A stretch of DNA of 64,000 nucleotides from an uncultured Gammaproteobacteria bacterium (lineage in GTDB: Bacteria > Patescibacteriota > Microgenomatia > Levybacterales > GWA1-39-11): NCBI GenBank assembly GCA_964504535.1, contig CAZDED010000008.1, positions 12,673 through 76,672 of the forward strand. Reading direction: 5' to 3'. The notes under the pieces were generated by a model that saw nothing but the letters and a program-made list of their open reading frames with translations, had not been told where the DNA came from and searched no databases. The translations under genes were made by a program, and so were the position numbers. Below are positions 12,196-30,096 of the stretch, piece by piece. How positions within the stretch are numbered: position 1 is the first letter of the stretch; each line of letters opens with the position of its first letter.

Positions 12196-12224
12196 TTGAC
12201 AACTATATCAAACTATGTTATAAA
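12196..12224 (+). promoter_or_regulatory. Near-consensus sigma70 promoter (TTGACA-17-TATAAA) at the head of the glycan super-operon
   Basis: TTGACA at 12196-12201; 17-bp spacer; TATAAA at 12219-12224. Followed by a 7-bp-stem hairpin at 12240-12260 that encloses the first ATG. Confidence 0.4.
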
Positions 12225-12255
12225 CTACTCATCTTACAGCCCATAGCTATTATCT

Positions 12256-12486
12256 ATGGGTTGTATTTTTATTTTGAGCACAAAAAATAGTAAAGCAACT
12301 AATATTAGCGAGTTTCTAACCGTCCATGAAGTGGCGGCATTACTTCGATTGTCTGTTCTCACCATTTACAAATACATAAAGGAAGGCCATCTTGAGGCTG
12401 TGGAGTTTGGCGGACACTATCGTGTGTCACACAACTCTCTTAATAAATTTATCAGCATCCATAAAGTAGGAGGTAGCAATGAATAA
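12256..12486 (+). CDS. Small excisionase/MerR-type helix-turn-helix DNA-binding protein
   Basis: LTVHEVAALLRLSVLTIYKYIKEGHL is a typical HTH_17/excisionase-family motif. The true start may be the TTG at 12274. Confidence 0.5.
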   Translation: MGCIFILSTKNSKATNISEFLTVHEVAALLRLSVLTIYKYIKEGHLEAVEFGGHYRVSHNSLNKFISIHKVGGSNE

Positions 12487-27182: not shown

Positions 27183-28783
27183 CTCTTTCATTTAATAAAA
27201 AGTTTTTAGAGAAAGTGACTGCCTTTTTTTCTAAAAATGCGGTTCTTTTTCTCGTTGTTATTCTTGCGGTAATTTCTATAAGTAGTTTTGCTTTTTATCT
27301 CAACAATCAGCTTGGACTTGCATACAATGATGCCCGTTCACATTTAGATATTGGGAGACGAGTAGTTGAAGGGCTCAAGCCGGGGCTAGCACAGCTTGGT
27401 TCAGTGTGGCTTCCCCTACCTCATCTGTTGATGGTAGCAACCATTTGGAATGATTTTATGTGGCACAGCGGTCTTGCCGGGGCTCTGGAAAGCATGATTT
27501 CATTTGTTGCGACAGGCGTTCTAATATATCTATTTTTGAAAAATTTAGGAGTAGGAATGCTTGGCAGATTGACAGGGGTTGCAGTTTTTGTAGCAAATAT
27601 TAACATTCTATATCTTCAGTCAACAGCAATGACTGAACTTTTGCTTATTGCTACTATGACTGCAGGTGTTTTCGAGCTTTTTATGTGGCAGAAAGAAGGA
27701 AAGCTTATACATCTTATCTTTGCTGCCTTTTGGGTGATGTTGGCAACCCTGAATCGATACGATGGGTGGTTTTTGTTCCTGTGGGCAGCTGTATTAGTAA
27801 TAATACTTACATTCCAAAAAAAGGGATACAAAGCTGCAGAAGCAGCATTTCTATTTTTTATTACACTTGCGGGGTTTGGTATTCTTCTATGGTTTTTATG
27901 GAATTTGTTGATTTTTAAAGACCCCCTGTATTTTGCATTTGGTCCGTATTCTGCCCATGCGCAACAACAGCAGCTTGCAAATGCTGGGGTTCTTGCATCA
28001 AGTCATAATTTGCCGTTGGCTTCTAAAATTTATTTTTACGCTTTAGCATTTAATAGCTATACATTACCTTTGATTTTGGGTGCAGTTGGTGCTATGGCTT
28101 TCTGGTTTAGTCGCAAGATAAAAAACAATATTAAAATTGTTATGTCTGCATTAATGGCTCCCTTGGTTTTTAATATTCTTGCACTTTATCTAGGTTTTTC
28201 TGTACTTTTTGTTCAGGGCATATCAGGGGACACTTGGTTTAATGTCCGATATGGGATAATGATGGCTCCAACCATTGCCATATTTATTGGTTTTCTAATA
28301 CATCGCTTCTCGAATCTAAAATGGGTTTTTATAGGTCTTCTAGCATTTGTGATTTTCTTTGGTTTTGCTAATCAAGACGCTGTAACTATTGATGATGCTC
28401 GGGTAGGATCTTCACAAAAGAATGTTAGTGAAGTTTCTGGCTGGCTTAGCAAAAGCGCTAAAGATAAGCCAGGTTTCATTCTTATTTCAGCAGCCTCACA
28501 TGATGCCATTATTTTTTCATCTGGTCTTCCAATGAAAAAATTTATACATGAGGGAACAGGTAGCTATTGGCTAGCTGCTACTTCTGCTCCTGACAGGTGG
28601 GCTCGGTGGATTATTATGAGAACCAACGATGTAAATGATCAAACATTCAAACTGCTTATGAAGAATAAGGCTCTTGGAAAATACAACTTGGTTGGAAAAT
28701 ATCCCTTTGCTGATATTTATGAATTAAAGTCTGAATATGTTGGAAGTCTTAACACAACCCCATCTCTTGGAAATCAAAAATAA
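27173..28783 (+). CDS. Second GT-C-like polytopic membrane glycosyltransferase with a C-terminal soluble domain
   Basis: N-terminal ~400 aa is highly hydrophobic and multi-TM; C-terminal ~130 aa is hydrophilic. Overlaps the upstream gene by 10 nt. Confidence 0.4.
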   Translation: MDLTLSFNKKFLEKVTAFFSKNAVLFLVVILAVISISSFAFYLNNQLGLAYNDARSHLDIGRRVVEGLKPGLAQLGSVWLPLPHLLMVATIWNDFMWHSGLAGALESMISFVATGVLIYLFLKNLGVGMLGRLTGVAVFVANINILYLQSTAMTELLLIATMTAGVFELFMWQKEGKLIHLIFAAFWVMLATLNRYDGWFLFLWAAVLVIILTFQKKGYKAAEAAFLFFITLAGFGILLWFLWNLLIFKDPLYFAFGPYSAHAQQQQLANAGVLASSHNLPLASKIYFYALAFNSYTLPLILGAVGAMAFWFSRKIKNNIKIVMSALMAPLVFNILALYLGFSVLFVQGISGDTWFNVRYGIMMAPTIAIFIGFLIHRFSNLKWVFIGLLAFVIFFGFANQDAVTIDDARVGSSQKNVSEVSGWLSKSAKDKPGFILISAASHDAIIFSSGLPMKKFIHEGTGSYWLAATSAPDRWARWIIMRTNDVNDQTFKLLMKNKALGKYNLVGKYPFADIYELKSEYVGSLNTTPSLGNQK

Positions 28784-28791
28784 AGAAATGT

Positions 28792-30096
28792 ATGCACCAA
28801 AAAGATATACTATCCTCAAAAAGAATACAAATAAGCTATAAGGTCTTTTATTTGTGTGGCCTCGCATTGATTACCGTAAGTGTTGTTCTGCTTGCTTTAT
28901 TTTTATACAACAATAAAAAAGCTTCCCATATTGAGAACAGTAATTTTTGGAAATTCGAAGCAATTGATACCATGAAATACTCAAGGGATCTTGCACGTGA
29001 GAAGTTGAACCATCCCCTTTTTAATTTGGTAATTGATCAGCAAGTGCGAGATATAGCTGCAACAGGAGCCACACACATTGCTATTGCAACACCATATGAT
29101 GATGAATTCTACCCAATGTTAAAACGATGGGTAGAATCTGCTCGAAAATATAGACTAAAAATATGGTTTCGAGGCAATTTCTCAGGCTGGGAAGGCTGGT
29201 TTGAATACTCCAAAATCACAAGAGCTGAACACATGGAGTTAACCGAAAAATTTCTAGAGGAGCATCCTGAGATTTTTGAAAATGGAGACGTTTTTACTGC
29301 GTGCCCGGAGTGTGAGAATGGGGGACCAGGAAATCCAACGCGTATAGGTGACGTTGAGGGACACAGAAAATTTCTAATAGCAGAATATCAGGTGACAAAG
29401 AAGGGATTTCTCAAAATGGGAAAAACTGTTGCCTCAAACTATGACTCTATGAATAAAGATGTTGCCGTTGCTGTTATGGATAAAGAGACGACTGCTGCCC
29501 TTGATGGAATTGTGACTATTGATCATTACGTTTCGACCCCAGAGAAATTAGCAAAAGATATAGATGATTTGGCAGAGAAAAGCGGTGGCAAAATTGTTCT
29601 CGGAGAATTTGGTGTACCAATACCTGATATCAATGGAGAAATGACTGAAACTCAACAGGCAGACTGGGTTAGAAGGGCTGGACAGTTGATAGTAAATTCA
29701 AAAAATCTAGTAGGACTTTCGTATTGGGTAAACCTTGGAGGCTCAACTAAATTGTGGAATGACGACAATACAAAAAGAAAGGTTGTCGACTCCATTTCTT
29801 CATTTTACAACCCTAAGCAGCTTTTGGTGATAGTGGATGATGAGGCTGGGCAACCAATTGAAGGTGCAAGAGTTTTAGGTAAGGAGAGATTTGAATTGAC
29901 ACGCAAGGATGGAAAGGCAATGCTCCCTTATTTAGATGAAAATCAAGAAGTTACGATAAGTGCTGACAATTATAAAGATTCAACATATAAACTTAGTCAT
30001 CTTATAGAGAGCAGACAGGTGATTCTGGAAAGAAATTATGAAAGTTCTATATTTAAGCTCAAAAAGTTTTTTAAAAGAGTTTTTCCCTTCTTGTAA
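28792..30096 (+). CDS. Membrane-anchored clan GH-A (GH5-like TIM-barrel) glycoside hydrolase
   Basis: N-terminal TM; candidate acid/base in ...TACPECENGG and nucleophile in VLGEFGVP (GH5-like NEP/GEFG pattern). Confidence 0.4.
   Translation: MHQKDILSSKRIQISYKVFYLCGLALITVSVVLLALFLYNNKKASHIENSNFWKFEAIDTMKYSRDLAREKLNHPLFNLVIDQQVRDIAATGATHIAIATPYDDEFYPMLKRWVESARKYRLKIWFRGNFSGWEGWFEYSKITRAEHMELTEKFLEEHPEIFENGDVFTACPECENGGPGNPTRIGDVEGHRKFLIAEYQVTKKGFLKMGKTVASNYDSMNKDVAVAVMDKETTAALDGIVTIDHYVSTPEKLAKDIDDLAEKSGGKIVLGEFGVPIPDINGEMTETQQADWVRRAGQLIVNSKNLVGLSYWVNLGGSTKLWNDDNTKRKVVDSISSFYNPKQLLVIVDDEAGQPIEGARVLGKERFELTRKDGKAMLPYLDENQEVTISADNYKDSTYKLSHLIESRQVILERNYESSIFKLKKFFKRVFPFL

Follow-up and report, generated by a model that had tools for sequence, protein, structure and literature searches.

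The window analysed here is the whole 64,000-nucleotide stretch taken from contig CAZDED010000008.1 (assembly GCA_964504535.1) of a bacterium that GTDB places in the Levybacterales. It contains an unbroken array of same-strand genes (12,256-30,096, +) which ends at the stop codon of a gene for a glycoside hydrolase (GH) of the clan GH-A type. We found this array to be a locus type that recurs in other Microgenomates, and on balance we consider it probable that it is the Microgenomates version, within the candidate phyla radiation (CPR), of a cell-envelope glycopolymer assembly locus, conserved as a unit and working by a composite route. A prior reading made from the sequence alone (the sequence-only reading) had proposed a dedicated cell-surface glycan locus at this place, and our analysis supports this, nearly all of the domain assignments having held when tested. 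The array comprises 15 genes, namely one small helix-turn-helix (HTH) gene (g0) and 14 large open reading frames (ORFs; g1-g14), rather than the nineteen consecutive genes first claimed, a number reached only by continuing past 30096. The genes and associated features are listed below, with glycosyltransferase abbreviated as GT, short-chain dehydrogenase/reductase as SDR, cytidine and nucleoside diphosphate as CDP and NDP, amino acids as aa and transmembrane as TM.

12196..12224, +, promoter-like TTGACA-17-TATAAA upstream of the HTH gene g0, read directly from the sequence
12274..12486 (longest ORF from 12256), +, g0, small excisionase/MerR-type HTH_17 DNA-binding protein of 70-76 aa (PF12728)
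12479..14728, +, g1, GtrB/ArnC/Dpm1-like GT2 fused to a predicted processive QxxRW GT2 synthase (Pfam, NCBIfam, PDB homologue)
14730..17210, +, g2, likely MOP/Wzx-like polytopic membrane part (aa 1-~440) continuing into a cytoplasmic GT4 (GT4 by Pfam, MOP via homologues)
17243..17271, +, promoter-like TTGACT-17-TATAAT (11/12) in the sole sizeable internal gap (17211-17288), consensus match only
17289..18065, +, g3, glucose-1-phosphate cytidylyltransferase RfbF (TIGR02623 equivalog)
18070..19098, +, g4, extended SDR, proposed CDP-hexose C4 dehydrogenase (best PDB match 6vo6)
19095..19616, +, g5, RmlC-like cupin sugar epimerase (PF00908 at 2.1e-45 over residues 5-172)
19618..20901, +, g6, DRL_cat/SAF oxidoreductase of DLO type, proposed NDP-4-keto-sugar reductase (PF21135 at 4.4e-47)
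20882..21802, +, g7, GT2 (Pfam GT2)
21810-22931, +, g8, GT4 (Pfam)
22939-23850, +, g9, GT2 of ~300 aa (Pfam)
23847-24761, +, g10, GT2 of ~300 aa (Pfam)
24763-25665, +, g11, GT2 of ~300 aa (Pfam)
25668..27182, +, g12, polytopic membrane protein, probable GT-C (PMT_2/LA_3751-like; NF047440 at 8e-15)
27173..28783, +, g13, GT-C-fold glycosyltransferase of a family without a Pfam model
28792..30096, +, g14, clan GH-A (beta/alpha)8 glycoside hydrolase, anchored in the membrane by its N-terminus and ending in a beta-sandwich (AlphaFold2 model, Foldseek)
30243..30271, +, promoter-like TTGACA-17-TATACT (11/12) before the LAxTG gene g15, within the 191 nt that separate it from g14, match to the consensus only
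30288..30902, +, g15, secreted 4-Cys domain protein with an LASTG sorting signal (alignment of 7 orthologues)
30911..31444, +, g16, sortase (PF04203 at 1.1e-23)
31589..31612, +, terminator-like hairpin and T-run at the end of the g15-sortase unit (9 pairs, including 5 G-C, then TTTTTCTG)

Junctions are spaced from -20 to +8 nt throughout the array, save for a single 78-nt gap. The overlaps of 4-20 nt described earlier proved partly genuine: five are real (8 nt between g0 and g1, and 4, 20, 4 and 10 nt), the remaining junctions being 1-8 nt apart, whereas two others are start-codon artefacts. We place the start of g6 most likely at 19618, 1 nt past the g5 stop, because alignments to Brucella DRL and to the 427-aa orthologues begin there, and that of g12 most likely at 25668, 2 nt past the g11 stop, because this matches the 504-aa cluster representative.

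Conservation of the Locus

Eighty genomic loci around homologues of g6 were fetched, and all proteins of the window were compared by BLAST with the ORFs of these loci. Gene order is conserved in at least 7 other Microgenomates genomes, which shows that the array is not a chance arrangement. The view that this gene combination, which the sequence-only reading did not recognise as a textbook cluster type, is a one-off is not supported by the same synteny comparison, which reveals a conserved Microgenomates locus type. Its order is the HTH gene, g1 plus g2, RfbF, SDR, in some genomes a methyltransferase, the RmlC-like gene, the DRL-like gene and the GT2 g7, and then variable GTs, g12, g13, g14, the LAxTG protein and the sortase. 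Five loci have the full order (L003, L007, L011, L012 and L022) and four have it in part (L004, L006, L010 and L014), the order of blocks being kept in at least 7 genomes despite protein identities of only 30-80%. The locus spans Levy-, Gottesman-, Chisholm- and Daviesbacteria-type genomes, among which the core proteins g6, g13 and g14 are 50-80% identical, and the closest relatives of its proteins come from Levybacteria, Gottesmanbacteria, Chisholmbacteria and other Microgenomates. At 90% identity the proteins of the window are singletons, and identical genes are present in independent (Logan) assemblies. We found no description of this cluster type in CPR bacteria in the open-access literature, which is weak evidence of novelty.

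Five of the loci (L006, L007, L011, L012 and L022) come from third-party-annotation records of metagenome-assembled genomes (MAGs) labelled 'uncultured Gammaproteobacteria bacterium', yet carry the Microgenomates-type locus (55-84% identity); these labels are probably wrong.

The Predicted Membrane Megasynthase

Pfam recognises two GT2 stretches in g1, corresponding to an N-terminal GT2 with two TM helices (aa 1-~300) and a QxxRW synthase with C-terminal TM helices (aa ~340-749). The N-terminal half matches the ArnC model NF007986 (1.1e-16, protein residues 7-299 on model positions 6-295 of 316) as well as the models for PgfS (2.1e-20) and AglJ (1.2e-13), all of them below the equivalog cut-offs, and has a hydrophobic segment at 272-323; it has the sequence features expected of a polyprenyl-phosphate glycosyltransferase of the GtrB, ArnC and Dpm1 type, an activity that we predict for it. 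The C-terminal half carries the motifs YDAED, TEDADLG and QRSRW together with hydrophobic segments at 600-629 and 675-703, and matches Glyco_tranf_2_3 and Glyco_trans_2_3; CelA, PgaC and XrtG-associated GT models also match g1. Its best solved homologue is E. coli BcsA (1.1e-11), it is 62-69% identical in relatives, and it is predicted to be a processive synthase of the BcsA, PgaC, HAS and NodC type.

The membrane half of g2 shows eight broad hydrophobic blocks and has no Pfam match of its own; sequence and profile searches of the PDB were uninformative, returning spurious orexin-receptor matches that stem from TM composition. Among 32 homologues of this domain (21-39% identity), however, 12 match Polysacc_synt (PF01943), four Polysacc_synt_3 (PF13440, best 6e-14) and four MatE, so that a MOP/Wzx-like character is likely. 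In the five relatives with complete genes (L003, L007, L012, L014 and L022), g1 and g2 form a single in-frame protein of ~1,580 aa (measured from stop to stop, the ORFs have 1,581-1,608 codons; the gene as called in L003 encodes 1,570 aa). Representatives at 50% identity contain the g2 membrane domain alone, fused to GT4, or within megafusions of 1,530-1,611 aa. A sequencing frameshift was considered as the origin of the g1/g2 split in the window and rejected, as identical genes occur in independent assemblies and L010 is likewise split.

The CDP-Sugar Module

The cytidylyltransferase g3 is an RfbF equivalog (399.2 bits against TIGR02623, cut-off 300.25, with protein residues 1-257 on model positions 1-255). 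For the adjacent SDR, g4, the best PDB match is 6vo6 (99 bits, 3e-27), the next reaching 71 bits; both g4 and 6vo6 keep YxxxK and both lack the acidic dehydratase pair, and the motif SSCSVYG of g4 is GalE-like/6vo6-like. Although g4 matches the generic epimerase/dehydratase families PF01370 and PF16363 and the LegB 4,6-dehydratase model (2e-22), its score is just 23 bits with the model for CDP-glucose 4,6-dehydratase (RfbG, TIGR02622; cut-off 278) and 49.5 bits with that for dTDP-glucose dehydratase (cut-off 365), and Pfam detects no other SDR in the cluster, so that no 4,6-dehydratase is recognised among the cluster proteins. Orthologues of g4 (50-56% identity) lie directly downstream of an L-2-hydroxyglutarate oxidase gene (LhgO; 587 bits, cut-off 299) in three lineages, Fontivita pretiosa, a Phycisphaerae MAG and an Acidobacteriota MAG (L024, L026 and L032). 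Of the CDP-hexose pathway named by the sequence-only reading, the RfbF, SDR, RmlC-like epimerase and SAF oxidoreductase are all present, but the deoxyhexose that it inferred is unsupported, because g4 fails the RfbG model, carries the SSCSVYG motif and has orthologues paired with LhgO.

An LhgO gene inside a nucleotide-sugar cassette is an unusual context (L024:6866-8272, L026:6860-8140, L032:7016-8257); in L024 and L026 it sits between RfbF and the SDR. In the Levybacteria relative L003, an inositol-monophosphatase-like gene and two methyltransferases are added (6245-9481 and 11290-11859), one of the latter being a TylC3-type sugar C-methyltransferase (Methyltransf_13/14) between the SDR and the RmlC-like gene and the other following the DRL-like gene; the sugar made by this relative is therefore probably C- or O-methylated. 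In L010 and L014 an ORF of ~420 aa occupies the slot between SDR and RmlC-like gene that the methyltransferase takes in L003.

With 116 bits against TIGR01221 (cut-off 156), g5 is a member of the RmlC family and not an RmlC equivalog. The oxidoreductase g6 aligns with Brucella DRL (3upl) at 229 bits. DXR-II enzymes are told from the DLO families by Thr229 and His250 (Brucella numbering), Ile at 229 being the DLO1 state, and the four DLO1/DLO2 representatives tested did not complement a DXR-defective mutant (PMC3847144). At the first of these positions g6 has an Ile that is invariant in 17 homologues, and at the second a Glu, the position being Glu or variable among homologues; on its signature residues g6 is therefore not a DXR-II (DRL) reductoisomerase. 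It is 50-88% identical across many phyla, and in dozens of them it shows linkage to RmlC-like and RfbF genes: of 71 loci, drawn from many phyla, in which the RmlC-like gene and the g6 homologue share a strand, 57 have the two no more than 200 nt apart.

Two variants of this arrangement were distinguished. In variant A (30 loci), g6 homologues accompany g4-like SDRs. In variant B (39 loci), an NDP-sugar 6-dehydrogenase and a UXS/ArnA-like decarboxylase SDR stand in place of g4 and the RmlC-like and DRL-like pair is kept, which suggests an undescribed pathway from CDP-glucuronate to a CDP-pentose. Both share a logic in which a generator of a 4-keto sugar is followed by an epimerase and a DLO enzyme, and from this we infer that the DLO enzyme, and hence g6, acts as a 4-keto-sugar reductase. 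The product in the window would then be a non-deoxy CDP-hexose, probably of L configuration, made by what is probably an undescribed route to a CDP-activated sugar. Nothing relevant turned up in searches of the open-access literature for DLO proteins in connection with nucleotide sugars or for C4 dehydrogenases acting on CDP-glucose. The gene order of variant B is RfbF, UXS/ArnA-like SDR, NDP-sugar 6-dehydrogenase, RmlC-like and DRL-like, as seen in L019, L037, L051, L053, L029 and ~34 other loci from Anaerolineae, Desulfobacteraceae, Methanoperedens, Gammaproteobacteria and others.

Glycosyltransferases and the Membrane-Anchored Hydrolase

Of the soluble GTs, g7 is the one most consistently found after g6, its orthologues (38-59% identity) following g6 directly or past one inserted gene, and this holds also for L005, L013 and L041, whose fetched DNA does not contain the remainder of the locus; g7 is a candidate for the enzyme that uses the CDP-sugar. 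The GT2 proteins g7, g9, g10 and g11 are paralogous (20-34% identity). The number and type of GTs in the block g8-g11 (21810..25665) vary between relatives. GC content falls to 0.34 at 21000-24000 of the window, exactly over the GT2/GT4 block g7-g10, and is 0.37-0.41 elsewhere, a pattern resembling the low-GC variable regions of O-antigen and capsule loci. Neither Pfam nor NCBIfam detects a phosphoglycosyl transferase domain (Bac_transf or MraY/WecA type) in any of the 14 proteins.

In all relatives with both genes, g12 lies directly upstream of g13. The NF047440 model matched by g12 is an NCBIfam family of putative glycosyltransferases; PMT_2 is weak in g12 of the window (0.018) and found in 3 of 10 orthologues (best 3.7e-4), and sequence and profile searches of the PDB gave no match. 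In g13, an invariant YNDARSH lies in the first extracytoplasmic loop and an extracytoplasmic domain forms the C-terminus; the protein has the characteristics of a GT-C enzyme, for which use of a lipid-phosphate-linked donor is predicted. Sequence and profile searches of the PDB with g13 returned only CD8 noise, and no WWDYG-type oligosaccharyltransferase (OST) motif or other AglB/STT3 sequence motif was seen in it. Since ArnT and the ALG mannosyltransferases score nearly as well with g13, its fold does not discriminate between acceptors.

Searches of the PDB by sequence and profile with g14 gave noise, and no CAZy or Pfam sequence family tested was matched. Its AlphaFold2 model (predicted local distance difference test score 90), on the other hand, has a TM anchor at the N-terminus, followed by a TIM barrel and a beta-sandwich, and Foldseek finds 309 PDB matches at E <=1e-3, with a probability of 1.00 for all 50 listed; the matches listed are led by GH5_18 (1.8e-10), GH157, GH10, GH113 and GH5, and CcsZ is also present. 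Invariant glutamates at 173 and 175 (PECEN, after strand 4) and 272 (LGEFG, at the end of strand 7) are where clan GH-A enzymes have them, and the modelled barrel together with these residues points to membership of that clan.

The Sortase Pair

A signal peptide, the 4-Cys domain, a Gly-rich (Gly/Ser/Thr-rich) linker, LASTG, a TM helix and a basic tail make up g15. All 7 orthologues share an invariant L-A-x-T-G and four invariant Cys, followed by the TM helix and K/R residues, and g15 is syntenic with g14 and the sortase in six relatives; it has no Pfam or NCBIfam match. The sortase g16 scores 41.2 bits against TIGR01076 (cut-off 39.35) and reaches no sortase class model. The two proteins together have the features of a sortase and a substrate with a sorting signal, and by its sequence g15 is a predicted sortase substrate.

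Nearly all of the parts named in the sequence-only reading were thus recovered: a Dpm1/GtrB-like polyprenyl-phosphate-sugar synthase domain (through the ArnC, PgfS and AglJ models), a QxxRW processive synthase (through its motifs and the BcsA match), a Wzx-type flippase (as a likely MOP-like domain, through g2 homologues), further soluble GT2/GT4 enzymes (by Pfam), two GT-C membrane transferases (g13 and, as a probable one, g12), a membrane hydrolase (g14, confirmed as an anchored clan GH-A barrel by AlphaFold2 and Foldseek) and an adjoining sortase/LAxTG pair (g15 and g16). The two domain fusions are real according to Pfam and in most relatives are united in one megaprotein.

Transcription Signals and Flanking Genes

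The consensus-like promoter reported at the start of the locus is indeed present (12196-12224) and overlaps a second promoter-like site (10/12) at 12169-12196. Comparable -35 and -10 boxes precede the orthologous HTH gene in the four relatives examined (L003, L007, L012 and L014), L012 having the weakest -35 box (TTTACA), and in the same four the g0 orthologue (44-58% identity) holds the same position. The g0 protein scores 50.5 bits against TIGR01764 (cut-off 28.8), PF12728 HTH_17 is called on an identical gene, and it is a putative regulator of the locus. Transcription may start a second time from the site at 17243..17271. The gene blocks are not separated by any terminator-like site, and one is reached only past the sortase, at 31589-31612.

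A stem-loop of 12 bp, with TTTTTATTTT after it, is found at 12235-12265 (+), ~10 nt past the -10 box and before or overlapping the start of the HTH gene; it resembles an intrinsic terminator, or an attenuator, placed where the transcript begins. The idea of a conserved leader or attenuator was rejected, there being no comparable hairpin at this place in L003, L012 or L014; the strong stem-loop of L007 is unrelated, so that neither sequence nor position is conserved.

The flanks carry housekeeping genes (Mur ligase, a DsbD-thioredoxin fusion, cysteinyl-tRNA synthetase, Obg, and pyruvate phosphate dikinase), and the GC content of the locus, apart from the dip to 0.34 in the GT block, equals that of the flanks; the locus is therefore chromosomal. 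The divergent neighbour (10410-12125, -) encodes a protein of 571 aa in which thioredoxin/redoxin domains are joined to a DsbD-type membrane domain and which could feed reducing power to extracytoplasmic disulfide handling; g15 has four invariant Cys. Right after the sortase terminator, a 520-aa secreted protein (31632-33194, +) has a signal peptide and no sorting motif; with no Pfam or NCBIfam match and no homologue in any fetched locus, it appears to stand outside the conserved locus. A DUF2079 predicted polytopic membrane protein, of a family that we take to be glycosyltransferase-like, is encoded 6 kb downstream on the opposite strand (37519-38970, -).

Discussion

Each module of this locus has a known analogue, but none of the known systems that we compared combines them all. 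In three-component extracytoplasmic glycosylation systems (GtrA/GtrB/GtrV, ArnC/ArnT, CsbB/YfhO and the streptococcal GacI/GacK/GacL), as here, a GT2 polyprenyl-phosphate-sugar synthase with C-terminal TM helices is joined by a flippase (here a likely MOP domain, cf. GacK) and an extracytoplasmic GT-C enzyme. Unlike in those systems, a processive synthase shares one protein of up to ~1,600 aa with the synthase domain, the flippase and a GT4; there are two GT-C proteins (of which g13 lies outside the Pfam GT-C families), and with them go another six cytoplasmic GT domains and a CDP-sugar pathway dedicated to the locus. The pairing of a QxxRW GT2 closest to E. coli BcsA with a co-encoded extracytoplasmic GH-A hydrolase recalls BcsA-BcsZ and the clostridial CcsA-CcsZ, and CcsZ itself (6uje) is among the structural matches of g14 (TM-score 0.59, normalised to the target). 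However, Pfam detects no BcsB or PilZ domain, the hydrolase best matches GH5_18 and GH157 and belongs to no sequence family, and the synthase is fused to a polyprenyl-phosphate-sugar synthase and usually also to the MOP flippase and GT4. Haloferax volcanii Agl N-glycosylation and WbbF-type synthase-dependent O-antigen assembly would share with this locus the building of glycan on a lipid monophosphate or a lipid-linked primer by a cluster that encodes no phosphoglycosyl transferase, the use of a Wzx-like flippase together with GT-C enzymes, and a synthase that extends a primer; no AglB/STT3 motifs were found here, and the setting is a bacterial CPR envelope with a sortase-anchored neighbour.

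For the sugar module the closest parallel is the modification of capsular heptose in C. jejuni by the C4 dehydrogenase Cj1427, the C3/C5 epimerase Cj1430 and the C4 reductase Cj1428, in which Cj1427 oxidises C4 of GDP-heptose and its bound NADH is re-oxidised by alpha-ketoglutarate in a ping-pong reaction that yields L-2-hydroxyglutarate (PMC10680097). The steps that we propose for g4-g6, oxidation of C4 without deoxygenation, RmlC-like epimerisation and C4 reduction, would be the same, and the adjacency of LhgO in three lineages fits the formation of L-2-hydroxyglutarate. The differences are a CDP carrier and a hexose in place of GDP-heptose, a DRL_cat/SAF (DLO) protein in place of the SDR reductase, the distance between g4 and 6vo6 (99 bits), and the lack of LhgO in the window and the fetched Microgenomates loci. 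With DXR-II/DRL (3upl) and with DLO1/DLO2, g6 shares fold family and domain set (229 bits), but unlike DXR-II it is without the signature residues and sits in a nucleotide-sugar synthesis context; we found no assigned function for the DLO families in the open-access literature. What is not textbook, then, is the combination of modules, the megafusion of four domains, the families for which Pfam has no model (g13, g14 and g15), the CDP carrier and the DLO protein in the reductase slot, and no descriptions of these five features were found in the open-access literature.

The composite route that we favor builds on the observed domain identities and coupling of the parts, the order of events being our reconstruction. 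RfbF (g3) would make CDP-glucose, which g4 would oxidise at C4 without 6-deoxygenation; g5 would epimerise the 4-keto sugar and g6 reduce C4 to give a CDP-activated non-deoxy hexose, probably L-configured, for use by g7. At the cytoplasmic face, the GtrB/ArnC-like domain of g1 would load a sugar onto polyprenyl phosphate, and such a polyprenyl-monophosphate sugar is the likely primer or donor because the cluster is without a phosphoglycosyl transferase. The soluble GT2/GT4 enzymes and the GT4 domain of g2 would extend the lipid-linked or nascent glycan, with the CDP-sugar among their donors, while the BcsA-like QxxRW synthase would polymerise and export a backbone and the MOP domain would flip the lipid-linked sugar or oligosaccharide. 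Outside the membrane, g12 and g13 may pass lipid-linked sugars or glycan to the polymer, the wall or the sortase-anchored g15, and the anchored hydrolase g14 may trim or release chains, as BcsZ and CcsZ do for cellulose.

Several points weigh against this route. Synthase-dependent and flippase-dependent assembly are normally alternatives, and their co-operation here is suggested by fusion and synteny; product, acceptor and single transcript are likewise predictions from sequence and synteny. Promoter-like sites of 11/12 stand in both gaps, so that the array may be read as more than one transcript, and shuffled sequence yields no fewer promoter- and terminator-like sites than the region does. 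The gene for a priming transferase could lie at another place in the genome. The GT-C assignment of g12 is weak, and since hhalign relates it to g13 with a probability of 4.7% we do not claim that the two are paralogous. The structure 6vo6 is probably that of C. jejuni Cj1427, with which the depositor's molecule name agrees. LhgO was not found in the window (by tblastn) or in the fetched Microgenomates loci, and CPR bacteria may be without a ready supply of alpha-ketoglutarate; g4 could thus use another oxidant, or could be a simple epimerase or an atypical dehydratase.

Alternatively, one could envision protein glycosylation of the archaeal Agl type, in which an oligosaccharide on polyprenyl monophosphate is begun by the AglJ/GtrB-like domain, extended by the soluble GTs, flipped by the MOP domain and transferred en bloc by an STT3/PMT-like g13 to g15 or an S-layer protein, with g12 adding a last lipid-phosphate-linked sugar. 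A polyprenyl-phosphate-sugar synthase domain and six cytoplasmic GT domains in a cluster without a phosphoglycosyl transferase, the matches of the AglJ model to g1 (1.2e-13) and of the Agl16 model to g2 (2.9e-26), and the Gly/Ser/Thr-rich linker of g15 and its synteny with the locus in six relatives would all suit such a pathway, of the kind known from Haloferax. It leaves no role, however, for the conserved BcsA-like synthase (62-69% identity) or the GH-A hydrolase, and g13, with no WWDYG-type OST motif, is matched nearly as well by ArnT and ALG mannosyltransferases; we regard it as possible but rather unlikely. A little less likely still is that the sugar is a CDP-6-deoxyhexose, with g4 as an atypical CDP-glucose 4,6-dehydratase, g5 as 3,5-epimerase and g6 as 4-reductase, in the manner of RmlB, RmlC and RmlD on a CDP carrier. 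The order RfbF, SDR, RmlC-like gene and reductase does mirror rmlABCD, g4 matches PF01370, PF16363 and the LegB model (2e-22), and some relatives have, between g4 and g5, a TylC3-like C-methyltransferase, an enzyme type that classically acts on 4-keto-6-deoxy sugars. Yet g4 falls far short of both dehydratase models (23 bits against 278 and 49.5 against 365) and has S-C-S where dehydratases have T-D-E; its best solved relative, 6vo6, is probably the non-dehydrating C4 dehydrogenase Cj1427, and a dehydratase, with its internal redox cycle, would not need the LhgO that adjoins it in three lineages.

That the array merely juxtaposes independent units (synthase, nucleotide-sugar/GT and GT-C/GH) making separate glycans in a gene-dense, strand-biased CPR genome seems to us improbable. 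The promoter-like sites of 11/12 in the 78-nt and 191-nt gaps would allow it, g3-g7 stand alone in other Patescibacteria (L013 and L041), the g3-g6 form occurs across many phyla, and in L005 the g12-g14 triad lies on the strand opposite g3-g7; set against this are the block order shared by at least 7 genomes at 30-80% protein identity, the physical fusion of polyprenyl-phosphate-sugar synthase, synthase, MOP and GT4, and the lack of any terminator-like site between blocks. Hardly credible is a recruitment of g6 as a true DXR-II (DRL) making 2-C-methyl-D-erythritol 4-phosphate for the polyprenyl carrier lipid: the 229 bits to Brucella DRL and the DRL_cat and SAF domains speak for it, but Thr229 is replaced by an invariant Ile (the DLO1 state) and His250 by Glu or a variable residue (criteria of PMC3847144), and dozens of phyla show linkage of the gene to RmlC-like and RfbF genes. 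On these signature residues and on genomic context we rejected it.

A bolder reading, which we think quite unlikely as a whole, would have the locus build a bacterial 'proteoglycan', in which g13 couples the polymer or a lipid-linked oligosaccharide to the sortase-anchored g15, and, separately, would have DLO enzymes catalyse the last step in a widespread and as yet undescribed family of CDP-sugar pathways. In this proposal g13 may be a previously unrecognised GT-C family, the glycan may be made by the synthase or linked to lipid monophosphate, and the g15 glycoconjugate may be the main envelope glycoconjugate of Microgenomates. The DLO enzymes may serve both a CDP-L-hexose branch, via a Cj1427-like dehydrogenase, and a CDP-pentose branch, via a 6-dehydrogenase and decarboxylase; given their kinship to a reductoisomerase, they might even be reductoisomerases making a branched or ring-contracted sugar.

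We know of no cultured Microgenomates bacterium, and to our knowledge the envelope chemistry of the group is essentially uncharted. Analogues for the parts of this locus exist in three-component glycosylation, in BcsA with BcsZ/CcsZ, in Cj1427/Cj1430/Cj1428 and in sortases with their substrates, and the occurrence of four functions in one polypeptide argues that assembly routes usually seen as alternatives can work together. Three unannotated families, the GT-C enzyme g13, the GH-A hydrolase g14 and the LAxTG 4-Cys protein g15, could receive models. The comparative context also offers a biochemical hypothesis for the DLO oxidoreductases, functionally orphan since 2013, as 4-keto-sugar reductases of CDP-sugar pathways, which is reachable through the genes of the cultured planctomycete Fontivita pretiosa. 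Because it is conserved across lineages, with core proteins 50-80% identical, the locus is a strong candidate for the source of a major Microgenomates surface glycoconjugate, one that could mediate attachment to hosts.

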